Positions 4,991-32,307 of a stretch of DNA of 41,105 bases are shown here, one piece after another. The number at the start of each line of letters is the position of its first letter. The stretch's first letter is position 1. The stretch is from Minisyncoccota bacterium (GTDB lineage Bacteria; Patescibacteriota; Minisyncoccia; Phycocordibacterales; UBA2100): contig DASSSZ010000002.1 in NCBI GenBank assembly GCA_035708165.1, positions 1 through 41,105 of the forward strand. The letters run 5' to 3'. The position numbers and the translations under genes are program-made. Below the pieces are notes generated by a model that saw only the letters and a list, made by a program, of their open reading frames with translations, had not been told where the DNA came from and did not search any database.

Positions 4991-5167
4991 CTATTTGCGG
5001 CGACTGCTCTTCTTCGCAGTCTTGCGGTGCGTGGTCTTCTTCGCAGCCTTGCGATGAGTCTTCTTCGCGGCCTTCTTAGCGACCTTGCGATGGGTCGTCT
5101 TCTTCGCGGCTTTGCGATGAGTGGTCTTCTTGGCTGCCTTCTTGGCGTGAGTCTTCTTTGCTGCCAT
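4991..5167 (-). CDS. Small histone H1-like Lys/Ala-rich DNA-binding protein (58 aa)
   Basis: MAAKKTHAKKAAKKTTHRK... built from AAKKTTHRK repeats; 21 Lys, 6 Arg, no acidic residues; followed by its own hairpin. Confidence 0.85.
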   Translation of the reverse strand: MAAKKTHAKKAAKKTTHRKAAKKTTHRKVAKKAAKKTHRKAAKKTTHRKTAKKSSRRK

Positions 5168-5365
5168 ACGTGATGTATTGATACGATGCTGGTAATCGAC
5201 CACGTTCCTCGCATTGTTCGCCGGAACGTTTTCTCAATTATCAAGCACGCGATGCATACGTACAATGCATTCGCGCGAAAACTGTGGAAAACTCTTGCGC
5301 AAAGATATGCATGCATATTCATATTTCTTTCAGAGAGCGCGGGGTACGCATCCTCAGCGCAACGC

Positions 5366-5391
5366 GACGCGCCGCCCGAAGGCGGCGCGTC
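5366..5391. repeat. 11-bp GC hairpin (UUCG loop on the minus strand)
   Basis: gacgcgccgcc-cgaa-ggcggcgcgtc. Confidence 0.7.
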
Positions 5392-5610
5392 TTGCTTTCG
5401 GAGCACGCCGTGGAGGACGGGTGCGAGCTCCAAAGGTGAAGATCGTTTTTGTGAGTGCCGCCGTCCTCCACGCCATGCTCCGGCGGCATATTCAGGATAG
5501 CACACCGAGAGACCAAGCCACCCATTTCCGCCACCCCTCACCCCGCCACCATCTCGTACCCGCCTCGTACCCGCTCCGTACCTATACTCCTATCCCACAC
5601 TGCCATCCAT

Positions 5611-5650
5611 CTATCCCCACATCTGCGCGGCCGCGCAGATGTGGGGATAG
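5611..5650. repeat. Perfect 40-bp palindrome, copy 1 (downstream of the PaaX/Cas2-like gene)
   Basis: ctatccccacatctgcgcgg|ccgcgcagatgtggggatag. Confidence 0.95.
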
Positions 5651-5691
5651 GCAGATAGGACGCTACCAGCAAGAAGCAAGCTTATTGCGGA

Positions 5692-6255
5692 TCAGATGCC
5701 GAAATGTTCCCGCAACGGCTTGTCGCGCTCGATCGACTCTACGATCAAGTACAGGATACTGCCGCTCGTACCAATGTCCGTCTTCAGCAGGCTTACGAAT
5801 TCTTCGCAATCATACGGATATACCCACGCACTATCCTGCAGGCGATAGAAGCCGAAAGCTGCCAATCGGCGACGGAATGCATCGCGCAGCCGGTGCCGAT
5901 TCTCTGGAATATCGAACATAACCATCCGCCACCGGCGATCCCACCGTCGCGGCTTCTTCGTTCCAGCCTCATGCCGTTGCAATTCTCGGCGGCCAGCTTC
6001 AGTTATCTCGATGTGCGTCCTCCCCGCAATAGTTACGAATCTGACCATGCCCTTTTCTGCAAGTCGGCTGGCAACGGACTTAAGGCGGTAAGAGAATTTG
6101 CTCTTGCTCCCCGTAATGCCGCCGAGCAACTGAATGACGTTCGGTGCCGCGGCGGCCAATACGACCAGGCCAGGGACTGCCACTGCCGCAAGCAACGCGC
6201 GCTGCACGTCTCCCCTCCTGCGAGCTGCACGCGCTTGATCTTCCTGCGCACCCAT
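5692..6255 (-). CDS. PaaX-family / Cas2-like domain protein (187 aa; N-terminal wHTH-like region plus Cas2-like ferredoxin domain)
   Basis: RWDRRWRMVMFDIPENRHRLRDAFRRRLAAFGFYRLQDSAWVYPYDC is typical of the PaaX central Cas2-like domain family common in CPR. TATGAT -10 lies 7 nt before the ATG at 6255. Confidence 0.88.
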   Translation of the reverse strand: MGAQEDQARAARRRGDVQRALLAAVAVPGLVVLAAAAPNVIQLLGGITGSKSKFSYRLKSVASRLAEKGMVRFVTIAGRTHIEITEAGRRELQRHEAGTKKPRRWDRRWRMVMFDIPENRHRLRDAFRRRLAAFGFYRLQDSAWVYPYDCEEFVSLLKTDIGTSGSILYLIVESIERDKPLREHFGI

Positions 6256-6262
6256 AGAGGAA

Positions 6263-6268
6263 ATCATA
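6263..6268 (-). promoter_or_regulatory. -10 box (TATGAT) of a leaderless promoter, abutting palindrome copy 2
   Basis: TATGAT-7 nt-ATG. Confidence 0.65.
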
Positions 6269-6269
6269 C

Positions 6270-6307
6270 ATCCCCACATCTGCGCGGCCGCGCAGATATG
6301 GGGATAG
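6270..6307. repeat. Palindrome copy 2 (38 bp, 1 mismatch to copy 1), over the promoter of the PaaX/Cas2-like gene
   Basis: atccccacatctgcgcggccgcgcagatatggggatag. Confidence 0.95.
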
Positions 6308-6418
6308 GTTCGGGGTGCGGGAGGCGGGAGGTGATGCGAGGAGTGGGCGGAGGTGCGAGGAGTGGGCGGCGATGCATAGGGCGGAAAGAGGTGGGTGGAA
6401 TTGGTGGATGCATCTGCC

Positions 6419-6802
6419 GATGCTGCGCATCGGGGAAGGGTGGCAACGTAAACCCACACGTCGCATCGGGCTGGAAAGGCCCGATGCGCTCGCGGGCCTG
6501 CCTCAGCAGCCTGGCTGCATGCGCTTCGCGCATAGTCAGGAACTCCGGCCTCCGGCAGTCCTATGTTTTTGTCCTCCTGCTGATGCTGCGCATCGGGGAA
6601 GGGTGGCAATGTAAACCCACACGTCGGCTCGCTACGCTCGCCGCGTCTGGGCGCGCCTCGCCGCCCGAATCGCAGCCGGGCCATAGGCCCGCGCGATTCG
6701 GGGCCCGGCTCCGGCGGTTTTGCATTGCCGCCTCCGGCCCGAAGCTACGCTTCGGGTGAGGAGCGGCAACGTAAAACCCCGCCGGGGCGGGGTGTTACGT
6801 TG
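6419..6802. repeat. Array with ~160-nt period: two 45-bp direct repeats plus a third partial copy, with hairpin-rich spacers
   Basis: gatgctgcgcatcggggaagggtggcaa(c/t)gtaaacccacacgtcg at 6419-6463 and 6582-6626. The core ggcaacgtaaa(a)ccc recurs at 6765, overlapping a 17-bp hairpin (6767-6802). Confidence 0.85.
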
Positions 6803-6875
6803 ATCTTCCTTTGGAGAGCGCGCACATCGCACTCACAGGGATAGCATAACGCCTCCCCTACTCTCCCGCAAGGCA

Positions 6876-9083
6876 CTACTGCACCTTGAGCGTGCCGTTC
6901 CTGATCTGCGTGATCAGCGACTGCGCCTCAGACTTCACCGAAGCGTCCTGCGTGCTTGCCGCGATGGATTCGAGCTGGCTGATTGCCTTGCTCGTCTGGC
7001 CATCCTGGTAGTAGGCGGCTGCGAGCCCGAACTGCGCCTGGAGATTCTCCGGATGCGCCGCAAGGTAGCCCTGCCAGATCGAGATGAGCTTGCCGTACTG
7101 CTTGGTAGCCGCGTATGCCGCGACCACGCGCTGGTCCGCGATGATCCCCTTGCCGGCAAGATCGCTCACGAGCTGGTCCGCCTCGTCCGTCTTGCCATCG
7201 TAGATGGCTGCCATGGCGTAGAAGGCTTCGGCATCCGTATCGCTCGTATCGAGCTCGTACGTCTGCTTGAGGAGCTGGTAGGCCTGATCGTTCTGGCCGA
7301 GGGCGATCTGCGCGAGCGCGAGCTGGAAGCTGATCGTCTGCTTCGCCGGCGAGAGGTCGTGCGCCTTCTCGAGGCTCGGGAGCGCGCTCGTGGCATCGCC
7401 CGAGGAGGCAACGAGTGCGCCGAGGAAGAGCGGGAATCGCGCATCGAGCGGCGCTTCCTGCATCTGCTTCTGCATCTCGCTGGTGGCGAGCTGGTAGAAG
7501 CTGGTGCGCGTCGAGGTGGCGATGCTGGTCTGCCCGATCACATTCATCGCGATCTGCACGAGCTGCTCGCGGGTCTCCTGCTCGCCGAGGCTGTTATACG
7601 AGAGTGCCTTCTCGAAATCGTCGAGGCTGGCCTCCGGCGTCGACTGCGAGACAGCGGAAAGGAGCGCGCGATTCTGCTGGTAGGCGTTCCAGTTCACGAG
7701 GTAGACGGTCCCGAGGCCAAGCACGATGCCGGCAGCGGCAAGGTACGGCAGCGCGACCGCGGGGACGAACCCTCGCGCCGGAAAAGCAGGCGACCCGCCT
7801 TCGCGCGTCGCGCGTACCGCGATATAGCCCAGCACGAAGACGAACATGAGATAACTCGTGATGTTATCGAACACCACCATGTTATTGACCACATAGCCCG
7901 CAAGGAGGCCGGTGAGGAGCGCGCGTTCGAGCGGCGTGAAGGCGGCGCTCCGCCAGAGCATCCAGAGCGCGGCGACGAAGATGCCGCAGTACGCGAGGAA
8001 GCCGAGGAGGCCGCCCGCGATCAGCCAATCGAAGACGATGTTGTGCACGCGGTCGAACCACTGCTCCTGCGCCCACATGGCCGGGTTGTAGTACTTATCG
8101 AAGACGACGTTGTACTGCGACTGCCCCCACCCGAGGAGCATGCGCTGCGGGCTCTCCGTGAAGCCCTGCCATGCCATGCCCCAGTTCATGAATCGAGCGA
8201 TCGTCGTATCGTCCGTGAGCGAGATGGATGCAAGCCGGTGCAGCGGGCCCACTTTCTGCACGATCGGCGTATTGATGAGGAGGAAGAAGAGCCCGACCAG
8301 CACCACGAAGCCCCCGAGGATGCCGACACTCGCCTTCCACAGCACCTTCGATTCGCGGCCGATGAAGAGCATCAGGAACGCGGAGAACAGGACGCCAGCG
8401 AAGAGGCCGAGGATGGCCCCGCGCGTCTCGGTGAAGAAGAGGGAGAAGAACTGGAGCGCCATGATGGGCCCGAGCGCCCAGCCCCATCCGCGCCTGCCCT
8501 CGCGCCAGAGCTGCATCCAGAGCATCGCTGTGATGAAGAGCAGGAAGAGCATGTAGACGGCAAGGTAGGTGGAGTTGCCGAGGGTGGCATCGAGCCGCGT
8601 CGAGCCCTGGTCGATCGGAATCATCCCGATGAACTGCAGGATGCTATAGAAGCCCACGATGACCGAGATCCCGATATTGGTGGCGAAGAACCAGCGCCAG
8701 AGCCGCTCCACATGCAGCATCGAGCTCATGACCACGAAGAGGACGAAGAGGTGCGCGAGCGTCACCCAGCCCTCCATCCGCTCGAAGTTGCTCCAGAAGC
8801 TCTTGAAGGGATCCGTGCCCTGCAGATCCGCCACTGCGATGATCGCGATGAAGATCGCGAACGCACCGAGGAGCCAGGAGCGCTTCGGCCGGTACGTCGG
8901 CGAGACGAGCGCCAGCATGAGCCAGAGCGCTGCGATGAGCTCGACGACGACGCGGAAGAAGAAGTTCTTCCCCGTGATGAAGGGGAAGAACATGCTCTGA
9001 GTAATGATGAGCGGCACGATCGGCAGCACGAAGATGCCGCCGAGGATCGTCCACTTGAGGGCTTTCTCGATGAAGGTGTTCAT
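6876..9083 (-). CDS. O-antigen ligase/oligosaccharyltransferase-family membrane protein with C-terminal TPR repeats
   Basis: Multiple TM helices; RLDATLGNSTYLA, FTETRGAILG, LLGWGQSQY and DRVHNIVFDWL motifs; helical TPR-like C-terminus. Confidence 0.85.
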   Translation of the reverse strand: MNTFIEKALKWTILGGIFVLPIVPLIITQSMFFPFITGKNFFFRVVVELIAALWLMLALVSPTYRPKRSWLLGAFAIFIAIIAVADLQGTDPFKSFWSNFERMEGWVTLAHLFVLFVVMSSMLHVERLWRWFFATNIGISVIVGFYSILQFIGMIPIDQGSTRLDATLGNSTYLAVYMLFLLFITAMLWMQLWREGRRGWGWALGPIMALQFFSLFFTETRGAILGLFAGVLFSAFLMLFIGRESKVLWKASVGILGGFVVLVGLFFLLINTPIVQKVGPLHRLASISLTDDTTIARFMNWGMAWQGFTESPQRMLLGWGQSQYNVVFDKYYNPAMWAQEQWFDRVHNIVFDWLIAGGLLGFLAYCGIFVAALWMLWRSAAFTPLERALLTGLLAGYVVNNMVVFDNITSYLMFVFVLGYIAVRATREGGSPAFPARGFVPAVALPYLAAAGIVLGLGTVYLVNWNAYQQNRALLSAVSQSTPEASLDDFEKALSYNSLGEQETREQLVQIAMNVIGQTSIATSTRTSFYQLATSEMQKQMQEAPLDARFPLFLGALVASSGDATSALPSLEKAHDLSPAKQTISFQLALAQIALGQNDQAYQLLKQTYELDTSDTDAEAFYAMAAIYDGKTDEADQLVSDLAGKGIIADQRVVAAYAATKQYGKLISIWQGYLAAHPENLQAQFGLAAAYYQDGQTSKAISQLESIAASTQDASVKSEAQSLITQIRNGTLKVQ

Positions 9084-9169: not shown

Positions 9170-10441
9170 ATGGATTCCCTCAAAAGCGGCGTCGTCCGCC
9201 TCCTGCGCTGGAGCGAGAAGTACACCAAGACGGATATGGTCTATCTCGCCAAGGGGGGATTCTGGCTCGTACTTGCCCAGGTAGGTTCTGTCCTGCTCTC
9301 CTTCGCGCTCGCGGTCGCATTCGGCCACCTCGCCGGCCAGGACACCTACGGGAACTACAAATACGTAATCTCACTCGCCGGCCTCTTCACGGCTTTTTCG
9401 CTCACCGGCATCGGAACGGCAGTGACCCAAGCCACAGCACGTGGCTATGAAGGATCGCTCCGTCAAGGCGCCCGGCTCTCGCTGAAATGGGGCTGGGGCG
9501 TTTCTGTACTCGCGCTCGCTGTTGCCGGATACTACTTTTTCTTCGAGCACGATGCCTTCCTAGCCGTCGCACTCGTCATTGTTGCCGTGTGCATGCCGCT
9601 GATGAATGCATACTCGCTATTCGGCTCATTCCTGAATGGGAAGAAGGATTTCACTCGGAGCAGCATCTACGGGGTGCTGAATGCCGCCCTCCCCACTCTC
9701 ATACTCATCGCAGCGCTCTTCTGGACGGATCGCGCCATCGTCTTCATCATCACGTACTTCGTCGCGAATACGATTGCGGATATCATTGCCCACATTACCA
9801 CCCTGCGACATGCAAAAAACGAGGAGCAGGACCCGGACATCTTCTTGTACGGCACGCACCTCTCCGTGATGGGCATCGTCAATACCATTGCCAGTAAGAT
9901 CGATAGCGTGAGCGTATTCATCCTGCTCGGCCCTGTGCAGCTAGCCATCTATGCGTATGCAGCCGCCATCCCGGAGCAGATCAAGGGCGGCATCAAGATC
10001 ATCGGTGCGCTCGCGATGCCAAAATTCTCCCAGCGCACAGTCAGCGAGATCAAGGCAACGATCTGGGGCCGAATCTTTCTTCTGACTGCGGCACTCGCGT
10101 GCGCAGTGCTTGTTTATGTCGGGCTCGCGCACTGGATTTTCGCATTGTTCTTCCCCGTCTACATGGACTCTATCTGGTACTCCCAGTTGTATGCAGCATC
10201 AATCGTATTCACCGGCTTCGTCACTCCGCTTACAGCCATCCTGCAAGCTCAACGAAAGACTCGTGAATTGTATTTCGCTACCTCAGTCGGCTCGGTCACG
10301 CTGATCATTCTCCTCCCCGTTCTCACCTTCTTCTGGGGGATCCTCGGTGCCGTAATCAGTCAGATTCTCTATCGCGCCGTGAATGCCGGAACAGCGATTA
10401 TTTTGACACTGAGACTGCAAGATGATCAGCTCCTTTCTTGA
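9170..10441 (+). CDS. wzx: Oligosaccharide flippase (Wzx / polysaccharide biosynthesis family)
   Basis: About 12-14 TM helices; YGNYKYVISLAG, KIDSVSV..LGPVQLAIY, FWGILGAVIS. TACTAT lies 7 nt before the ATG at 9170. Confidence 0.85.
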   Translation: MDSLKSGVVRLLRWSEKYTKTDMVYLAKGGFWLVLAQVGSVLLSFALAVAFGHLAGQDTYGNYKYVISLAGLFTAFSLTGIGTAVTQATARGYEGSLRQGARLSLKWGWGVSVLALAVAGYYFFFEHDAFLAVALVIVAVCMPLMNAYSLFGSFLNGKKDFTRSSIYGVLNAALPTLILIAALFWTDRAIVFIITYFVANTIADIIAHITTLRHAKNEEQDPDIFLYGTHLSVMGIVNTIASKIDSVSVFILLGPVQLAIYAYAAAIPEQIKGGIKIIGALAMPKFSQRTVSEIKATIWGRIFLLTAALACAVLVYVGLAHWIFALFFPVYMDSIWYSQLYAASIVFTGFVTPLTAILQAQRKTRELYFATSVGSVTLIILLPVLTFFWGILGAVISQILYRAVNAGTAIILTLRLQDDQLLS

Positions 10442-10917
10442 GAGATAGTGCCGAGCGCCCTGGCAGGCACTCCGGCAACGATTGTTTCCGCCTCCACGTC
10501 ACGAGTAACCACTGCACCGGCTCCAATAACCGCGTGCTCGCCTATTCGCACCCCGGGATTGATAATCGCCCCGGCGCCTATCCATACTCCATTGTCGATG
10601 TGCACGCGCCCTTTTAGATGACCACGTGCGGCTCCGGTTTTCCGGTAGTCCAGTCCTGCCGAGCTGATAATCGTGCCAGAAGATATATGTACGTCATCGC
10701 CGATCAAAACGGTATCCTTGGCGTTGATTGTTACGAACGGATTGATTACTACCCTATTGCCGACCGTAACCCACGCCGCACCCTGCACTGCAATTTTTCC
10801 CGTAATACGCAGATCTACGCCCGCTTGTTCAAATTGCGTCCTCCAATACGCCGTCCGTAACCATGTAGTTACACGGCGAAGATGTGTGTGTATGTGACAC
10901 GCCAGCTTCTTGCCCAT
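10426..10917 (-). CDS. Hexapeptide-repeat acyltransferase (maltose/galactoside O-acetyltransferase-like)
   Basis: VHIDNGVWIGAGAIINPGVRIGEHAVIGAGAVVTRDV...VAGVPAR. Confidence 0.9.
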   Translation of the reverse strand: MGKKLACHIHTHLRRVTTWLRTAYWRTQFEQAGVDLRITGKIAVQGAAWVTVGNRVVINPFVTINAKDTVLIGDDVHISSGTIISSAGLDYRKTGAARGHLKGRVHIDNGVWIGAGAIINPGVRIGEHAVIGAGAVVTRDVEAETIVAGVPARALGTISQERS

Positions 10918-10923
10918 ATTATT

Positions 10924-11577
10924 TTATTTGCGCGCGAAAACGTAATAACCGGATGTCATGATGGATGGTACTGGCACGGTACCCATGCCACTGCGACGAC
11001 CATACTCTTTCTTGATTAAGAGCTTAAGTAGGCCTGCTGTTCTTGCCAACGCTAGAAGGAGCGTTTTTGTTAAGATGCCGCCCCGCAGATCTGTTTGATA
11101 TGCAATCCTTTGCATCAAAATCCCAAATGTCTCAGAGGTCGATGACTCAGCTTGAATTTTGACATCGGTCCAATCACGAAAAAGGTGTGCCAGCCCGTAT
11201 TCGGTGTAACGATAATAATCTCCTGGGGCATCGTGAATCGGAAATACGAAACGTGTCGTCAGAATAATTCTTCCATTCTCCTTGAGCACGCGGCGCATCT
11301 CAGACAAAGCGCGCTCAGGAGTGTGAAGATGCTCCAAGACTTCCGTGCAAACGATACATTCGAATGTGGCATCTTCAAAAGGTAGGTCATGGGCATCGCC
11401 TACGATATCGACCCCTGGCGCCTGATATACATCCAAACCAACCCGGTTCGGGAAGAATTGCGAATATGGGGAATGCGCACAACCAAGATCAAGCGTGTAG
11501 GCATCGGATGCATGCGACTCAATGAACACATCGAGTCGTTCGCGCGTCATTTTCGACAATAAAAATTTCTTAAGCAT
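10924..11577 (-). CDS. Class I SAM-dependent methyltransferase (Methyltransf_11-like)
   Basis: TLDLGCA, VGDAHDLPFEDATFECIVCTEVLEHL, HDAPGDYYRYT. Confidence 0.88.
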   Translation of the reverse strand: MLKKFLLSKMTRERLDVFIESHASDAYTLDLGCAHSPYSQFFPNRVGLDVYQAPGVDIVGDAHDLPFEDATFECIVCTEVLEHLHTPERALSEMRRVLKENGRIILTTRFVFPIHDAPGDYYRYTEYGLAHLFRDWTDVKIQAESSTSETFGILMQRIAYQTDLRGGILTKTLLLALARTAGLLKLLIKKEYGRRSGMGTVPVPSIMTSGYYVFARK

Positions 11578-12643
11578 GAGCCATGAAGTCTATGATTGCG
11601 CGTGCACGTGCATCCCAAGTGTAGCTGCTAACTTTCCGACGCGCCAAGCGCGCTCGCGACCCATCCATACCATCGAGCGCCTGCAAGATTCCTAGTACAA
11701 GAGAACCCGGATTGCCCGGCTCGCAAAATACTGCCTCATCATCCGATAGCACTTCACGCACTGATGGTAAGTCAGACGCTACAATAGGAACACCGCTTGC
11801 CATGTACTCGAATAGTTTGAGCGGGGAGGTATATCGTTCTGATATAGGATTTCCAGACTTATTCGGGAGTACAAGAACATCGCATGCGGATTGCATCGCA
11901 GGAATCAGGGTCGGATCGGCCCTCCCTTCGAATCGAATCATCGGGTAGAGCTTGCGCAGCGACTCAACCTCTTCCGTGTTTCCTCCGATAATCCAAAAGA
12001 GCCAGTCCGATGGAGCTTTGTCTGACGCAGCGAGTAATACATCTACACCCTTCCAACTATGAACCCCGATACTTCCTGTGTATCCGATCACCTTCCTGTC
12101 GTACGGTAGTCTGAATCGTTCACGTGCTTCATGCTTACTTGGAAGGTTCTCGTAACGCGACAAATCCACTCCATCAGGCGCAACCAATATATGGTCACGT
12201 TCTATGCCCAATTCAACAAGCTCATCTGCGATTGCCTGTGTAATTGCAATGCACCCCGCAGTATGGCGTACCGCCCACTTGAAAAAGAAGTCTTTTTTAA
12301 TCCAGTGCACCCCAAAAAAGCATTCAACATGGATGCGCATAACGGCTGTCCAGATCAGAAAGAAAAACAGGAGTCTTTCTTCACGGCAGAAGACGTGAGT
12401 AACACCGAGACGCTTTGCTTGACGGGCAAAACGGAAGGCGAGAAACGGACTGCGAAGCCATCCGCGAATTGGCACGATTGTGAAATCAACCGAAAGTTTG
12501 GAACGTTCCGGCAGGCCTAGCATGAACATTCCTCCCAACTGTGTATGGAACGCACGCGACATGCTGAGAATTTGCAATCGGTTCGCAAGCTCTGATGGAT
12601 AGAGCGCAGATGATATATAGAAGTATTTCTTACTGATCGTCAT
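11570..12643 (-). CDS. Glycosyltransferase family 4 (GT-B)
   Basis: APDGVDL, IGYTGS, SPLKLFEYMASGVPIVASDLP. Confidence 0.9.
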   Translation of the reverse strand: MTISKKYFYISSALYPSELANRLQILSMSRAFHTQLGGMFMLGLPERSKLSVDFTIVPIRGWLRSPFLAFRFARQAKRLGVTHVFCREERLLFFFLIWTAVMRIHVECFFGVHWIKKDFFFKWAVRHTAGCIAITQAIADELVELGIERDHILVAPDGVDLSRYENLPSKHEARERFRLPYDRKVIGYTGSIGVHSWKGVDVLLAASDKAPSDWLFWIIGGNTEEVESLRKLYPMIRFEGRADPTLIPAMQSACDVLVLPNKSGNPISERYTSPLKLFEYMASGVPIVASDLPSVREVLSDDEAVFCEPGNPGSLVLGILQALDGMDGSRARLARRKVSSYTWDARARAIIDFMAHA

Positions 12644-12644
12644 A

Positions 12645-13682
12645 TCAATCTTGCTTCATCTCCTTCATAAGTCGTCGCGCCAGTGACTCCAGCGAATGCA
12701 TGTTGATGATTGTCTGGAGAGGCCCTGTTGCCTTTGCAGCCGCCGCTCCATCGAGCTCGAGCAGTGGCACCAAGGCCTTCTGCAGTGAGTCGGCAGTATC
12801 CCCTGCTGCGAATTCAGCAGGTGCAATAGCTGTCCAATCCGCGCTACTCGCGAGCGTCAGGCAGCCGCATGCTGCCGCCTCGAAAATCGTCTTGTCGAAC
12901 ATCCCGGACGGCGAGACATTCACGAAGACCTGATGCGCCTGATAGAGCTGCGGCGCCTCCGCGTGTGAGACCGCGCCGTGGAATTGCACTCGCTCTGCGA
13001 TGCCGAGTTCCTTCGCCTTCGCTTTGAGCGATTCGTAATACTGCTCATCGGCCGGCAATGGCGAACCGACTATATCTGCTGTGAATGCGATGCCATCATT
13101 CCAAAGCGCGCCGAGCGCATCGAGCAGCATGTCCGGGCGCTTCGACGGCGCGATGCGCGCAAGAAAGAGTATGGAGCGCGGAAGCCGTGCCACCGCCGGG
13201 TCGGGATGGAATCGGTCGGTATCGACGCCGACCGGCATGAAGACCGTCTTGCCGAACTTCGCAGTATACGAGCGTTTCGATGTACAGAAGACTTTCGTAC
13301 AGAACGCAGCAGCCAGATCAGTCAGCCAGGAGCCAGCGTAGTGATTGCGCCACATGTAGATGCGCTTGTTCATCAGCTTCCAGAACCAGCCGGCAAGGAG
13401 AATGTACTCCTGATTCATATGAACGAAGACGGCATCGTAGCTCCCGCGTTCGCGCCATGCGTATCGGAACAAGCGAGATACGTACTTGATGCGGGAACGT
13501 CCTTCCTCTTTCCCGAGCGAGAGGACCTTCACGTTTTCCGGCAACTCCCCATGCCCACCCTCCTTGAGGCAGATGACTGTAACCTGCTCGCAATGCTTCG
13601 CGAGCTCTGCGATCCAGCGCACGAAGAAACCCAGCGCCTGGTCGCGCCCATCCATCGCCTGAGTCACAACAAGAAGCTTCAT
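12645..13682 (-). CDS. Glycosyltransferase family 4
   Basis: GVDTDRF, ILFLARIAPSKRPD, FDKTIFEAAACG. Confidence 0.9.
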   Translation of the reverse strand: MKLLVVTQAMDGRDQALGFFVRWIAELAKHCEQVTVICLKEGGHGELPENVKVLSLGKEEGRSRIKYVSRLFRYAWRERGSYDAVFVHMNQEYILLAGWFWKLMNKRIYMWRNHYAGSWLTDLAAAFCTKVFCTSKRSYTAKFGKTVFMPVGVDTDRFHPDPAVARLPRSILFLARIAPSKRPDMLLDALGALWNDGIAFTADIVGSPLPADEQYYESLKAKAKELGIAERVQFHGAVSHAEAPQLYQAHQVFVNVSPSGMFDKTIFEAAACGCLTLASSADWTAIAPAEFAAGDTADSLQKALVPLLELDGAAAAKATGPLQTIINMHSLESLARRLMKEMKQD

Positions 13683-14335
13683 GCGGTATGCGGCCTCACG
13701 CGAAGCGTAAAGAAGCGATGATATGTATCAAGCACGGGCGTCTGTTCGGCTACGATATCGAAATGCTCACTGAGAGCAGCGCGGAACTGCGCAAGTGTCG
13801 TCGTATGCCCGTCGATTTCCCAATGATGCTGTGTCGAGATGGCAAACCCGGGGAATCGTACAGGCCAGCGGAATGCAAGATCAATCATGCTTCTCTTCAG
13901 GAGTGATCGCATTCCCGGGAACTTGAGCACGAACTCGAATCCCGTACGACGATGCGGGACTGAAAGCAGTACTGTTCGCTTGCTCACCCGTGCAAGTTCA
14001 GCAAGTGCCTTCTTCATCTCGTCGAACGGGAGGTGTTCGAGAACTTCATAAATACAGACGGCATCAAAGGATCTGTCGGGGAGTTCGATTGATCTGACAT
14101 CGCCAACGACATCGGGCCTCAGCGATACATCGAAATCAAATGTGGTCATCGAAATACTCTTCCTCACGAGACTCGGCACAACCCCATCCCCCACGCCTAT
14201 GAAAAGGAGTGACTCGGGCGCGGCCTGACGTATACCTTTAATCTGGTAGAAATACGAGATAAAACGCTCGAGCGATGCATATTTCTCCGTCAAGTAATAC
14301 CCTTCCGGAACCTGGACATCCATGTCGAGCATCAT
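13679..14335 (-). CDS. Class I SAM-dependent methyltransferase (start uncertain, 14323-14365)
   Basis: LLFIGVGDG, VVGDVRSIELPDRSFDAVCIYEVLEHLPF, HHWEI. Confidence 0.82.
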   Translation of the reverse strand: MMLDMDVQVPEGYYLTEKYASLERFISYFYQIKGIRQAAPESLLFIGVGDGVVPSLVRKSISMTTFDFDVSLRPDVVGDVRSIELPDRSFDAVCIYEVLEHLPFDEMKKALAELARVSKRTVLLSVPHRRTGFEFVLKFPGMRSLLKRSMIDLAFRWPVRFPGFAISTQHHWEIDGHTTTLAQFRAALSEHFDIVAEQTPVLDTYHRFFTLRVRPHTA

Positions 14336-20455: not shown

Positions 20456-22030
20456 CTACATGTCGCCGGGTATTTCCTCAATGATATCCCACGCCTTGCT
20501 GCCGCGTCGCCGCGCAGTAATGGCCGAGACGGAGCCGAGGCCTGCGAGGGCGCCTGCGCCGAGCACCCACGGCCACAGGGGCGAATCCTGCGCGGGGTCG
20601 TGCCCGCCTGTGCCGAGCGCGGCGGCAGCGAACCCGGCTGCCTCGGGCGAGGCGGTACTGCTCGCAGCGACCGCCCGAGACGGCTGCGGCTGCACAGCGG
20701 GTGCGGATCGCTCCGGGGCGTCCTGAACGGATGCGGCGCTCGCGATCCGCGTGCCGATGAGCGAGCTCGCGCTGCTGGTACGCGCGATCGGCTGCGGGGC
20801 GCGGGCCGGGACAGGCGCGGACTGAGGCGCGACCGGCACAGGAGCGACCGGCGCCATGGCGGCTGCCGGCGCCTCCCCTTCCGCGATAGCGGCATCGCCA
20901 TCAGGGTACTCGAGCATGACCGGATGCGTAATGAGCGTAAGGCCGGTGGTGCCGGGGGCGAACGGCACGGTCGCGCCGGGAAGGAGGCGCGTGTGCTCCG
21001 GCAGGGCGAATGCCTTCCCGCCCGAGGCAAGGATCCAGCCGGACAAGTCGAGCTCGCGGCTGCTCCTGTTGGTGATCGCGATCGAGCCGTCCGAGAGCAC
21101 GCTGAGGGACAGCTGCGCCGGCTCGGCATCCACCGTGATCTCGTCCATCGCGGCGAACTTGTGCTCAGCGAGCGTGAGCGTCACCGCATAGCGGCCGGGG
21201 TGGGCCCAATGGTGCAGGACCGCTTCGCCCTCCTTCGTGGCGCCGTCGCCGAAGTTCCAGATGAACCGTACCGCGGAAGGGTCGAGCTCGGTTCCGTCCT
21301 TCGCGAAGGCGCGGCCATCGAATTCCGCATCCGCGCCGACGGAGACCACACGGTCGCCGCCCGCGTACGCATAGAGCTGCGGCGTGACCGGGAATACGGA
21401 GGCCGGGGTGCTGCTTGCCGCAGCATCCTGCTGCGGATCCGTGCTTCCCGCATCCTGCGCAGCGCCGGCATCCTGATCCTGTGCTGTGCCATCTGCGCCT
21501 GCAGTGCCCGGATCCGCCGGCGACAGCGATCCGGTACCCGGCGTCGGCGCGGCAGCGGCGAAAGCGGTCCCGGCTGCGCTCGTGCGCGAGAGGCTCTCCC
21601 CGTCCGTACCTTCGGCTGCGTCGTACGTGATCGCGTCGGCAGTCACATCCTGCGCGTCGTGAAGCGCGAGCGGCTCGCCGCTGTTGCTGAGACTGAAGGC
21701 GCTGTCGAAGAGCTGCCCGGCGAAACCAGGATGGTCAGTAAGGAATAGGGCCGGATTATCAGCGATGACCGCATACGCCCCCGGCGCGAGCACGGAGCCG
21801 CCTTGGACCGCGCTGATGCGATGGTCCGTCTCGTTCTCATAGAAATGCCACTCGGTGAGCGGGACCGCCGATGCGCCGGCATTGAAGACTTCCACCCACT
21901 CGTGCCCCGCATCGGTGCCGTCCGGGTCGTACATGATCTCACTGATGACAGCCTGCGCGCTCACGACGAGCGGCGCGCCGCATGCGACGCATGCGACAAG
22001 CGCGCCCGCTGCTGCCGCCTTCGCGCTCAT
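20456..22030 (-). CDS. Secreted lamin-tail-domain + PKD-domain protein with C-terminal membrane anchor
   Basis: VISEIMYDPDGTDAGHEWVE (LTD), FIWNFGDG..HPGRYAVTLT (PKD), a second LTD-like ITNRSSRELDLSGW, an Ala/Pro linker, then a TM helix followed by RRR. Confidence 0.85.
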   Translation of the reverse strand: MSAKAAAAGALVACVACGAPLVVSAQAVISEIMYDPDGTDAGHEWVEVFNAGASAVPLTEWHFYENETDHRISAVQGGSVLAPGAYAVIADNPALFLTDHPGFAGQLFDSAFSLSNSGEPLALHDAQDVTADAITYDAAEGTDGESLSRTSAAGTAFAAAAPTPGTGSLSPADPGTAGADGTAQDQDAGAAQDAGSTDPQQDAAASSTPASVFPVTPQLYAYAGGDRVVSVGADAEFDGRAFAKDGTELDPSAVRFIWNFGDGATKEGEAVLHHWAHPGRYAVTLTLAEHKFAAMDEITVDAEPAQLSLSVLSDGSIAITNRSSRELDLSGWILASGGKAFALPEHTRLLPGATVPFAPGTTGLTLITHPVMLEYPDGDAAIAEGEAPAAAMAPVAPVPVAPQSAPVPARAPQPIARTSSASSLIGTRIASAASVQDAPERSAPAVQPQPSRAVAASSTASPEAAGFAAAALGTGGHDPAQDSPLWPWVLGAGALAGLGSVSAITARRRGSKAWDIIEEIPGDM

Positions 22031-23937
22031 TGGTCCGAAAGGACCCGGCGCAGGACCTCGGGCGGGATCTCGCTCGATCCCTGGCGCGCAGGAGCCTCGG
22101 GGGCTGCGGGAGCCGCAGGAGCGGGAGCATCCGCTGCTCGGGATGCGCGCAGCTGCGAGGGGGTGACCGGCTGCGGCTCGCCCGGCTCGCGTTCGTGCAC
22201 GCGCGGCTGCGCTGGCGCGGCAGGCTCAACATGCGCTGCTGCATTCCGCTGCATGGCAGCGGCTATCGCATCCTTGAGCGCATTGCGCTCGCGTTTCTCA
22301 TCTGGACGCGTGTGTGCATTCATAGCGGGCGCAGCATCCTCGGCGCTTGTCGGCTGCGGCTCCGGGCGCATGGCGGCAGGCTTCTCGGCGGCGGCCTGCG
22401 CGCGCAGGATCTCGGCGGGCGCCGTGGCCGGCCGCGGCATGCGCGGTGCGCCCTGATTGCGAGCGCCGGAAGGCGCATGCTCGGAGCGGCTGCCTGAAGC
22501 GCCATTCATGCCGCTCAGCGAGCCGTTCTGGCTGCCGCCCTGCGCACCGCCATGCCCGCTGCTGGAAGAGCCGTTGCCGCGCGAACCGTTGCCGCTCGTC
22601 CGCTTCGTCGGCGGGGTGATCGGGAATGCCGCGAAGCGCTGCTGGATGAACTCCTCCACCTTCGCGCGCGGGGTGCCGTAGTGCTCGCGCGTGTACTGCG
22701 TCACCTGCCGCCTGAAGGAGACCGGCGGCTGCTCGATCGGCGGAAGCGTCTGCGCCGAGAACGGCGGCGAGGTGATGCCGTCGATCGAGAGCGTGAGATA
22801 GATCTGCCCCACTCCGAGGCCGACCATGTCTTCTACGGTGAAGGTCGGCTCGAAGAGCGGTTCGAGCTCCTGCGCGTCCAAGGGGCCCACCTTGAAGACG
22901 ACCGTCGTTCCGACATTGCCGAAGACGGCGTCCTTCACGGCAGTGGAGTCCTTCTCGTTCAATTGCGCGATGAACTGGTTGGCGATGATGAGGCCCAGGC
23001 CGTACTTGCGCGACTCGGAGAGGATGTTGGCGAAGGCTTTGTTCACGACGTTCTGGAACTCATCCACGTAGAAGTAGCACGGCGGCAGCTGGCGCTGGCG
23101 CGAGAGGCTCTCCTTCGCGCGCGACATGGAGGCGAGATACGTGCGGATCACGAGCACGGCGCCGATCATGGTCGAGTTCGCGTCGCCCATCTTCCCCTTC
23201 GCCAGGTTGCAGATGATGATCTTGCGCTCATCCATCGCGCGACGCAGATCGAAGCTCGAGCGCGGCTGGCCGATGATATTGCGTACGAGCGGATTGCTGA
23301 CGAGCTGGCCCACCTTGTTCTGGATGGCCGGCGTCGCCTCCTGCGTATAGCGGTCGCCATAGTTGGCGAACTCTTCCGTCCAGAAGGATTTCACGATCTG
23401 GTCGGTCACATGCGCGACCACGTCGTTGCGGAATTCCTTATTGATGAGCATGCGGTTCACGTCGATCAGGGTCGAATCCGGATACTCGAGGAGCGCAAGG
23501 AGCGTGTTCTGCAGGATGTACTGCATGCGCGCGCTCCACGCGTCCGCCCAGAGGCGCTCGAAGACACCCATGAGGCCCGAGACTACGTTGTGGCGCTGGT
23601 CGAAGCCGACATCCTCCATGATGTTGAACGCGAGCGGGAAATCGGTATCGGACGGATCGAAATAGATGACATCCTTCACCCGCTCCTCGGGGATGAAATC
23701 GAGCAGCTTCTCCGCCGTGGACCCGTGCGGGTCGATGAAGATGAGCCCTTCCCCGTTCTGGATATCCTGGATCGCCATGTTCTCGAGCATGGTGGATTTG
23801 CCCACGCCCGTCTTGCCGATGACGTACATGTGCTTCAGGCGATCGATGGCGCGGATACCGAATGCCCGCGCCTTACCGCGCGTGTGCGTCGCCGCGAAAT
23901 AGGTGACGCGCGAGGGGTCGAGGAACTCATCAGCCAT
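22027..23937 (-). CDS. VirB4/TrwB/TraG-like (HerA-FtsK superfamily) P-loop ATPase with disordered C-tail
   Basis: HMYVIGKTGVGKS Walker A, FIDPHG, FYVDEFQ Walker B, SESRKYGLGLIIANQ, VFGNVGT. Confidence 0.88.
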   Translation of the reverse strand: MADEFLDPSRVTYFAATHTRGKARAFGIRAIDRLKHMYVIGKTGVGKSTMLENMAIQDIQNGEGLIFIDPHGSTAEKLLDFIPEERVKDVIYFDPSDTDFPLAFNIMEDVGFDQRHNVVSGLMGVFERLWADAWSARMQYILQNTLLALLEYPDSTLIDVNRMLINKEFRNDVVAHVTDQIVKSFWTEEFANYGDRYTQEATPAIQNKVGQLVSNPLVRNIIGQPRSSFDLRRAMDERKIIICNLAKGKMGDANSTMIGAVLVIRTYLASMSRAKESLSRQRQLPPCYFYVDEFQNVVNKAFANILSESRKYGLGLIIANQFIAQLNEKDSTAVKDAVFGNVGTTVVFKVGPLDAQELEPLFEPTFTVEDMVGLGVGQIYLTLSIDGITSPPFSAQTLPPIEQPPVSFRRQVTQYTREHYGTPRAKVEEFIQQRFAAFPITPPTKRTSGNGSRGNGSSSSGHGGAQGGSQNGSLSGMNGASGSRSEHAPSGARNQGAPRMPRPATAPAEILRAQAAAEKPAAMRPEPQPTSAEDAAPAMNAHTRPDEKRERNALKDAIAAAMQRNAAAHVEPAAPAQPRVHEREPGEPQPVTPSQLRASRAADAPAPAAPAAPEAPARQGSSEIPPEVLRRVLSDQ

Positions 23938-29870: not shown

Positions 29871-30029
29871 ATGATTCGCTTCGGAAGCCATACCGCACTC
29901 CGTGCGCGCTCTAGGGATCGAACCTAGGACCTTTCGAGTATCAGTCGAATGCTCTACCAACTGAGCTAAGCGCGCACGCAATGCGTTATGGAATGAACTG
30001 CCTGCGCGGAGCTTCCGAAGCGAATCATC
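29870..30029. repeat. 19-bp inverted repeat pair (29870-29888 / 30011-30029) enclosing tRNA-Ile
   Basis: gatgattcgcttcggaagc / gcttccgaagcgaatcatc. Confidence 0.85.
29903..29975 (-). tRNA. tRNA-Ile(GAU)
   Basis: GCGCGCU acceptor stem, UUCGA-CUGAUAC-UCGAA anticodon arm, UUCGAUC T-loop; CCA not encoded. Confidence 0.95.
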
Positions 30030-30056
30030 CGAAAGATGTACAGCTTCTGTAAGAAG

Positions 30057-30091
30057 TCAGTCGAATGCTCTGCCAACTGAGCTAAGCGCGC
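30057..30091 (-). pseudogene. Duplicated 5' half of tRNA-Ile, truncated inside the anticodon
   Basis: 36-bp direct repeat of 29941-29976 with 1 mismatch, 116 nt away; TACTAT -10 lies 9 nt upstream. Confidence 0.85.
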
Positions 30092-30182
30092 AGTGGAAAG
30101 ATAGTAGCAAAAAAGGGGCTGCCATGCTACTCTCGATAGGCCGTAAGGCACTGTTCATCAAAAACCCACTGAGGAGGGATAG

Positions 30183-30428
30183 GTGAAAGGTAAGAATAAG
30201 CCAGGACGCGAAAAGGGCATCTGCCTCAAGCGCAAGCGCGAGCGGCGCAGGGCCGAGGAAGATGCGCGGAAGGAGGCACATATGCTCCTGAGCGCAAGCC
30301 GCCGCGAGGACCTGCTTCTGAGCGCCGAGATCGCAGCCGACCGGCAGCGCCGCAATACGCGGCTGAAGCTCAGCAGCCTGATCCGCGCCGGCGGCGTGGA
30401 TGAATCGCATTACCCGGCTTTTGCCTGA
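30183..30428 (+). CDS. Small basic hypothetical protein (81 aa)
   Basis: GAGGAGG upstream of GTG; terminator immediately downstream. Confidence 0.5.
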   Translation: MKGKNKPGREKGICLKRKRERRRAEEDARKEAHMLLSASRREDLLLSAEIAADRQRRNTRLKLSSLIRAGGVDESHYPAFA

Positions 30429-30434
30429 TCACAA

Positions 30435-30470
30435 CCCGGAAGACGCATATGCGTCTTCCGGGAATCTTTT
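30435..30470 (+). terminator. Terminator (perfect 28-bp palindrome plus T-run)
   Basis: cccggaagacgcat|atgcgtcttccggg followed by aatcttttt. Confidence 0.7.
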
Positions 30471-30530
30471 TGCACCGAAAACGAACCGCCGCCGTATCTG
30501 AGATTTCATAATCAGAGGGGTGGATAACTG

Positions 30531-30572
30531 AAAACGAACCGCCGCCAGCGGATGCTGGCGGCGGTTCGTTTT
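30531..30572 (-). terminator. 16S transcript terminator (19-bp stem)
   Basis: aaaacgaaccgccgccagc-ggat-gctggcggcggttcgtttt; one arm is duplicated at 30477-30493. Confidence 0.8.
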
Positions 30573-30581
30573 GGGTCCATT

Positions 30582-32307
<1,726 letters not shown>

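Follow-up and report, generated by a model that had tools for sequence, protein, structure and literature searches.

The 41,105-nucleotide (nt) stretch analyzed here, called the window below, comprises positions 1 to 41,105 of contig DASSSZ010000002.1 from a Minisyncoccota bacterium. It carries a gene for a 187 amino acid (aa) PaaX-like protein with a long palindrome on each side. The gene probably encodes a truncated PaaX-type autorepressor, and the two flanking palindromes are its predicted cognate operators. The features of the locus are as follows.

5611-5650, no strand: downstream site, a perfect 40-nt palindrome with a core of 38 base pairs (bp); centre between GCGG and CCGC; outer boxes TATCCCC and GGGGATA
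5692-6255, minus strand: mini-PaaX gene, 187 aa; winged helix at about residues 1-98 and Cas2-like ferredoxin-fold domain at about residues 105-187; no PaaX C-terminal domain
6263-6268, minus strand: predicted -10 hexamer TATGAT, 7 nt 5' of the ATG, abutting the upstream site; read from the sequence
6269-6306 (in register with the downstream copy), no strand: upstream site, a 38-bp near-copy with an internal T.G mismatch and a mismatch at the outermost pair

The downstream copy reads CTATCCCCACATCTGCGCGG followed by CCGCGCAGATGTGGGGATAG. The two 20-nt halves show 100% self-complementarity, and 41 nt separate the end of the palindrome (5650) from the stop codon (5692-5694). The upstream copy, taken as an inverted repeat, covers positions 6270-6305 with arms of 18 + 18 nt and one mismatch, a T.G on the gene strand. 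It gives 16 of 18 pairs in the sensitive palindrome scan, begins 14 nt from the ATG (6253-6255) and has its centre 32 nt 5' of the ATG. A preliminary description, made from the sequence of the window, had reported twin perfect palindromes of 38-40 bp at these two places. Both positions and both distances to the gene are reproduced, but the upstream copy falls short of perfection. Together the copies make up a direct repeat of 44 nt with 93% identity (5608-5651 and 6265-6308). A 32-nt core and a 22-nt core each match these two places only in the 41,105 bases when up to three mismatches are allowed; a shuffled-sequence control gives 0.00 matches to the palindrome cores, and additional half-sites within the window are not above chance. 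A metagenome scan with the 20-nt core ATCTGCGCGGCCGCGCAGAT gave 18 loci, which were rejected as chance matches in GC-rich DNA that carry neither the arms found in the window nor a PaaX-like gene.

In the source run, X1, Logan unitigs break within the perfect palindrome (5621-5640) with a 20-nt overlap, and the imperfect upstream copy is spanned. The breaks occur because the downstream palindrome exceeds k, and are thus an effect of k-mer assembly and not a biological junction. Orthologues of the gene carry both sites in independent assemblies, from several samples and by different assemblers. An artefact of assembly, an objection that the preliminary description itself had raised, is therefore unlikely.

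The start codon of the gene, ATG at 6255-6253, is fixed by the family alignment, which opens with MGxxE. The protein had been described as Cas2-like or PaaX-like with an FDI motif, and this identity is borne out. It matches Pfam PF20803 (PaaX_M, the central Cas2-like domain of PaaX) with an E-value of 8.2e-20 and 71.1 bits against a cut-off of 24, over residues 103-176, and retains F114-D115-I116. The match to Pfam CRISPR_Cas2 (PF09827) is below cut-off (18.3 bits, cut-off 23.8). The PaaX equivalog model TIGR02277 gives 34.4 bits against a cut-off of 264.55 and covers profile positions 37-135 only, and the Cas2 model TIGR01573 passes, with 27.4 bits against 24.5, over only 36 residues. There is no Pfam match to PaaX_C; the chain ends at residue 187, where the PaaX C-terminal domain would start.

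An AlphaFold2 (AF2) model built from 120 homologues, with a predicted local distance difference test (pLDDT) score of 69, improves on an earlier AF2 model. It displays a recognition helix at residues 51-67 and a wing (beta-hairpin) at residues 71-84, and after the winged helix a beta-alpha-beta-beta-alpha-beta domain. The top Foldseek match is E. coli PaaX (8a39, E-value = 4e-6, 179 columns), followed by Rv0674, Jannaschia PaaX, Cas2 proteins and winged-helix regulators (PadR, MarR, F93). Residues 20-45 were also considered as a membrane anchor. This was rejected in favor of helices 1-2 of the winged helix, since Foldseek aligns 179 of the 187 residues to PaaX; model confidence is low in that segment.

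Conservation was assessed in alignments of 35 and 120 sequences. Mean column identity is 64-66%, with 18-32 invariant residues, WD..WR, FDIPE and YPYDCE included. Invariant or nearly so in the 120 sequences are F114-D115 (D115 being the Cas2 beta1 Asp), WD..WR, LQxSxW and C150-E151 of YPYDCE; no His is found among the invariant or nearly invariant columns of either alignment. A profile search of 1.84 billion cluster representatives (50% identity) gave 488 at E-values of 1e-30 or better, and most of the best 150 are 180-200 aa long. Many homologues are named 'CRISPR-associated endonuclease Cas2' in NCBI records, because the 36-residue match barely clears the TIGR01573 cut-off. This naming is a systematic misannotation in Patescibacteria. 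The protein does resemble CRISPR-associated Cas2 in its ferredoxin-like fold and in the FDI/PE and QxSVW motifs. However, its length is double, a winged helix is fused to the fold at the N-terminus, and there is no cas1 or array nearby. The preliminary description had seen no cas1, cas3, cas9 or CRISPR array, and the window indeed shows no CRISPR-like array and no cas families among its main open reading frames; none are present in the annotated contexts of relatives either (genes with Pfam hits).

The arrangement of gene and palindromes was followed through a set of 81 loci, consisting of 80 that encode relatives plus the window. All are from Patescibacteria metagenome-assembled genomes, mostly Paceibacteria or Kaiserbacteria. 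Of 118 strong palindromes, 49 are no more than 100 nt from the gene start or stop, a zone of about 2% of the sequence; most of those far from gene ends show the short GC stem, loop and T-run of an ordinary terminator. The sensitive scan finds a same-class site on both sides of nearly every gene of the 81 loci, the co-occurrence with homologues on which the preliminary description had staked its proposal. Sites with at least 14 of 18 pairs are present upstream in 45 of 81 loci, downstream in 46 and on both sides in 32, with a background of 39 positions in 556,731. Across scans, same-class sites range from 45 to 59 of the 81 loci upstream and from 46 to 64 downstream.

When the flanking palindromes are aligned by their centres, pairing is at least 0.8 as far as position 19 and at background beyond, which sets the length of the site at 38 bp. 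The pair C(-3)/G(+3) is found in 99 of 102 half-sites and forms a near-invariant C-NNNN-G centre, in which the central two bases are often unpaired. A conservation profile was made from 48 loci with both sites. In this profile, pairing is 0.85-1.0 in the centre (positions 2-5) and in the outer box (positions 11-18), and both are also conserved from one copy of a locus to the other; in the spacer (positions 6-10) it is just 0.42-0.79. The outer boxes are 26 bp apart in a site of 38 bp. Of the G.T mismatches, 15 fall on the sense strand and 17 on the antisense strand, and because they lack strand bias the sites are not RNA-strand specific.

The closest relatives, which are 55-58% identical to the window protein and come from different samples and assemblers, share with the window both the layout and the TATCCC outer box.

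L103: site centres at -30 and +22
L107: site centres at -30 and +21
L099: site centres at -67 and +37, with a third copy at +613

In many loci the downstream site begins directly past the stop codon, with the centre at +18 to +21 in 14 loci.

The upstream site has a close relation to the promoter. Since the -10 hexamer is positioned 7 nt before the ATG, the mRNA is predicted to be leaderless or nearly so. TATGAT (6268-6263) abuts the upstream site, which spans the spacer and -35 region of this predicted promoter, a span that the preliminary description had already given. A simple sigma-70 scan does not call the -10 because there is no -35 match. TATACT is found at the position of the window's -10 in L103, L107 and L099, and in the window's clade the hexamer abuts the proximal end of the site. 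The centre of the upstream site is at -17 to -19 relative to the ATG in 20 loci, or at about -32 to -50. In the -17 class, matches of at least 5 of 6 to TATAAT are present in the promoter-proximal arm of 20 of 28 loci, and at one fixed offset in 15 of 28. As this arm ends in the start codon, the mRNA of the -17 class would be leaderless and the whole core promoter would be inside the site.

The other three half-sites show no fixed-offset signal of TATAAT-like hexamers, and the downstream site is therefore not a promoter; an antisense promoter in it was considered and rejected on this result. The gene next to the downstream site is on the same strand in 47 loci and convergent in 32. Since its presence does not depend on how the next gene is oriented, the site belongs to the mini-PaaX gene and not to the promoter of the neighbor.

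Several paralogues are found per genome. Those of one genome share 46-65% identity and have different site arms; they are old, and their sites have diverged. Over all pairs, similarity between sites tracks identity of the N-terminal, winged-helix part of the protein above that of the C-terminal Cas2-like part (partial rho 0.29 vs 0.10), and protein subfamilies display their own characteristic boxes, GGATA, AACAAGT and AACGTAT among others. In a column-by-column analysis of mutual information between protein and site, which is confounded by phylogeny, no region stands out. Locus-specific scans of about 600 kilobases (kb) of related loci yield 5 extra cognate sites, against 0 with non-cognate models (three-fold controls).

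These third cognate sites, 0.3-4 kb off in some relatives, bracket a neighboring gene or a gene-free segment as well. The positions concerned are 3489 and 4065 in L099, 940 in L059, 1021 in L076, 4732 in L029 and 3363 in L042. In L099 the downstream site recurs exactly 576 nt further on. No common 'cargo' is found beside the third sites; the neighbors are TrmB-like, LCAT-like, pilin-like and AhpC-like.

The nearest known system is PaaX, the phenylacetate repressor of E. coli W and Pseudomonas (PDB 8A39, 3L09). The window protein resembles it in the N-terminal winged helix and the PF20803 domain. The E. coli PaaX box, TGATTC-N27-GAATCA, is 39 bp long, and PaaX represses its own promoter by steric hindrance of RNA polymerase (review PMC9493321). 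The operator of two inverted boxes about 27 bp apart thus has a counterpart in the 38-bp site of the window, which also overlaps the gene's own promoter and to which binding is predicted. PaaX, however, is about 305-316 aa long and has a C-terminal helical domain that the 187 aa window protein lacks. PaaX controls paa (phenylacetate) genes and responds to phenylacetyl-CoA, whereas no paa genes are found in the window, where the neighbors are envelope-polysaccharide and Sec genes. The window genes include an envelope-polysaccharide cluster, SecA, SecDF, MurA- and MurC-like genes, FtsW and a VirD4-like ATPase. The window family also differs from PaaX in its invariant C-NNNN-G, in the second site after the gene, in having several orthogonal paralogues per genome and in keeping the Cas2 beta1 Asp.

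The family shares the PaaX fold and the operator geometry; the truncation, the absence of a catabolic context, the several orthogonal paralogues, the phylum-wide conservation and the second, predicted operator after the gene set it apart. Full-text literature searches found no paper on PaaX-like proteins in the candidate phyla radiation (CPR), none on their palindromes and none on orphan 'Cas2' in Parcubacteria, and this agrees with the preliminary description, which knew of no account of the arrangement.

The preliminary description had left a choice between a mobile unit and paired operators that serve autoregulation. The fold, the 38-bp span, the overlap with the promoter, the bipartite conservation and the match between site and protein subfamily favor the operators. 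What the analysis establishes is that the sites exist, that they are conserved as a class, where they stand in relation to the promoter, which fold the protein has, and that site and protein co-vary. From this we infer binding, repression, dimerization, and looping or a roadblock, as follows. The Cas2-like domain is most likely the dimer core. One dimer would occupy each 38-bp site, with both winged helices reading the outer boxes (positions 11-19; TATCCCC in the window) and a second protein contact at the C-NNNN-G centre. Occupancy of the upstream operator would block RNA polymerase, since the -10 abuts or sits inside the promoter-proximal arm and the mRNA is (near-)leaderless, and would result in negative autoregulation, as with PaaX at its own Px promoter.

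The downstream site would most likely be an auxiliary operator, bridged to its upstream counterpart in a loop of about 640-660 bp, and would raise local occupancy by the repressor. It may also, or instead, be a protein roadblock that insulates the gene from neighboring transcription. Lambda CI offers a functional analogy: its gene is situated between its own operators, and CI bridges OR and OL in a long-range repressor loop by cooperative octamerization, which tightens autoregulation. The lambda protein is unrelated, its loop is 2.4 kb with three sub-sites per end and its octamerization is demonstrated, whereas here there is one site per end, the distance is about 650 bp and bridging is a prediction.

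Several points weigh against an autorepressor with paired operators. The support for it consists of association and analogy. The canonical PaaX box is symmetric in the outer hexamers only, but here the whole 38 bp is often symmetric. A conserved operator 3' of a repressor's own gene is unusual. A repressor that seems to control mainly itself has no obvious output, as third sites are rare and their neighbors have no common function. Centre-to-centre distances show no clear helical phasing: the signal, from loci that are not independent of one another, is weak and varies with the period. Confidence in the structure model is only moderate over its N-terminal part (pLDDT 47-71). D115, the Cas2 beta1 Asp, is invariant here but absent from the PaaX relative Rv0674, and since this is a catalytic-type residue a catalytic role may exist. 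Compensatory double changes between the copies are in excess (at position 15, 6 compensatory, 0 non-compensatory and 3 one-sided), which would also fit selection for a hairpin or cruciform. Template switching gives quasi-palindromes a mutational tendency to become perfect. That some copies, the downstream one in the window among them, are almost perfectly symmetric would probably reflect recognition by a homodimer together with such correction, and quasi-palindrome correction can explain both the compensatory excess and the perfect symmetry.

The alternative that survives best, although it is unlikely, takes the palindromes to be nucleic-acid hairpins. The downstream copy would form a stem-loop at the 3' end that terminates or stabilizes the mRNA, the upstream copy would stop transcription reading through from the preceding gene, and the likeness of the two would come from local duplication or gene conversion. 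Predicted RNA folding gives very stable stems, with -43.9 kcal/mol (z = -8.0) for the downstream copy and -32.0 kcal/mol (z = -6.3) for the upstream copy. The invariant C...G would close a loop of 4 nt, the central 2 nt are often unpaired, and the compensatory double changes and the frequent position of the downstream copy directly past the stop codon would fit as well. On the minus strand, a simple terminator scan calls the upstream copy, whose T-rich tail is weak. The downstream copy is not called, because it has no U-tract. Nor does the hairpin account fit the -17 class, in which the upstream copy is outside the transcript of the gene, since the -10 is inside the palindrome and the ATG at its end. 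A spacer that pairs poorly between conserved outer boxes is what a recognition site would show and a stem would not, and the G.T mismatches have no strand bias. The ordinary terminators of these loci have a different form, and arms specific to each paralogue would be needless in a generic terminator. Rfam, run on 5150-6950, gives just sub-threshold matches to microRNA hairpins at the palindromes.

Somewhat less probable still is that the protein binds the sites mainly for an end other than transcription, the sites being elements of chromosome architecture or insulation, or targets of a site-specific nuclease or nickase at the palindrome centre. Strong conservation of the family, the retained Cas2-like residues of catalytic type, the invariant C-NNNN-G centre and the lack of an evident regulon would be consistent with this. 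Yet the fixed overlap with the promoter is most simply read as repression, and global architecture would need more than two sites per paralogue. Cas2 is the scaffold of Cas1-Cas2 complexes, and we know of no catalysis by the homologous Cas2-like domain of PaaX.

A more speculative extension, to which we give about the same low probability, is that the Cas2-like domain is catalytic or acts on DNA structure at C-NNNN-G. In that case each paralogue would form, together with its sites, a DNA element complete in itself (excisable, invertible or cruciform-binding), and the family would be a living intermediate between Cas2/VapD-type nucleases and PaaX-type regulators.

The least probable account, and one that we consider very doubtful, is that palindrome, gene and palindrome are a present or former mobile cassette whose protein recognizes or cuts terminal hairpins, like IS200/IS605 or the repetitive extragenic palindromes (REPs) with their associated tyrosine transposases (RAYTs, TnpA-REP). 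The preliminary description had proposed such a REP/RAYT-like unit, and extragenic palindrome copies on both sides of the gene are indeed common to both. Further points in its favor are the neighbors and orientations that vary among the 81 loci, the several paralogues per genome, an invariant Asp within a nuclease-type fold, and the third copy in L099 with its duplication of about 576 nt. However, RAYT is an HUH/Y1 enzyme and REPs are present in tens to hundreds per genome, whereas Pfam finds no HUH/Y1, DDE, serine-recombinase or tyrosine-recombinase domain in this protein and the copies are essentially the two that flank the gene, 2 in 41 kb, with the 5 extra cognate sites of the related loci. 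The context also speaks against a mobile unit, and the window is syntenic with the closest of its relatives for which context is available. One orthologue has the same neighbors in 23 contigs from many samples and another in 8 contigs, and the window shares with L103-L105 an upstream gene of Wzy_C/O-antigen-ligase type that is 53% identical, the regulators being 56% identical. The age of the same-genome paralogues and the divergence of their sites also speak against such a cassette. No relatives are found in phage, plasmid or IMG/VR collections, and the source run shows none of the joints that excision or a circle would leave, only the unitig breaks within the perfect palindrome. In runs X2 and X3, which contain close relatives, depth is 1-5, too shallow to tell presence from absence.

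Patescibacteria (CPR) have very few recognizable regulators, and to our knowledge almost nothing is known of how their transcription is controlled. At least 488 clusters (50% identity) share the full-length architecture of the mini-PaaX protein, with predicted operators that can be read from the genome and a specificity that depends on the paralogue. Recognition of operators by regulators in uncultured bacteria is therefore testable with synthetic DNA and purified protein. If the autorepressor reading is true, the family would be a source of naturally orthogonal pairs of repressor and 38-bp operator, potential tools. A repressor gene bracketed on both sides by its own operator throughout a phylum would be an unusual autoregulatory layout. 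The misnaming as Cas2 inflates the apparent CRISPR content of a group in which CRISPR-Cas is said to be rare. The Cas2-like motifs, kept here and lost in the canonical PaaX relative, bear on how the Cas2 fold was recruited into regulators.

Several smaller features were observed around the gene and elsewhere in the window. The 620-nt gap upstream of the gene (6256-6875) contains two 55-nt repeats, 6414-6468 and 6577-6631, which are 93% identical and 163 nt apart. A third, partial copy (6755-6778), 160 nt further on, overlaps a terminator-like hairpin after the Wzy_C-type gene. The repeats look like a tandem duplication of a terminator-proximal segment; L103 and L107 have no extra copies of the 55-nt repeat. 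A conserved small non-coding unit is situated between the Wzy_C-type and PaaX-like genes in three relatives, at about 6767-6870 (minus strand) in the window, about 2150-2260 in L103 and about 1120-1200 in L107. It consists of a TATAMT-like hexamer, about 75 nt starting at GTGAGTG, a hairpin CCCCGCC-CCGG-CGGGG and a T-rich tail. The unit could be a small RNA; Rfam gives no match to it at 6767-6870.

On the other side of the gene, positions 4991-5203 (minus strand) carry a 70 aa open reading frame rich in Lys and Ala, made of 27-nt (9 aa) repeats with KKTTHRKAAKK. This is the gene that the preliminary description called H1-like, and it has no Pfam match. The 400-nt gap between it and the PaaX-like gene shows a GC-rich terminator-like hairpin on the plus strand at 5366-5391 and an inverted repeat at 5399-5482, whose 22-nt arms enclose a loop of 40 nt. 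The plus strand also has a promoter-like site at 5238-5266. Together these features of 5238-5482 could belong to a short antisense or independent transcript.

Further away, positions 10001-14000 have a GC content of 0.49-0.57, compared with 0.62-0.70 around them. The part of the polysaccharide cluster located here has genes for a glycosyltransferase, methyltransferase and hexapeptide-transferase type of protein, which may be sugar-modification genes gained by horizontal transfer. At 29902-32210 (minus strand), a MurA-like gene, and not tRNA-Ala and 23S, comes after 16S rRNA and tRNA-Ile(GAT). No large-subunit rRNA is found in the window; the rRNA operon is unlinked. At 20456-23937 (minus strand), a gene for a VirD4/TrwB-type coupling protein adjoins a gene whose secreted-type product carries Lamin-tail and PKD domains. 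Other members of the PaaX-like family adjoin genes for type IV secretion system pilin or type-IV-pilin-like proteins, and the mini-PaaX family may thus be loosely associated with cell-surface genes.

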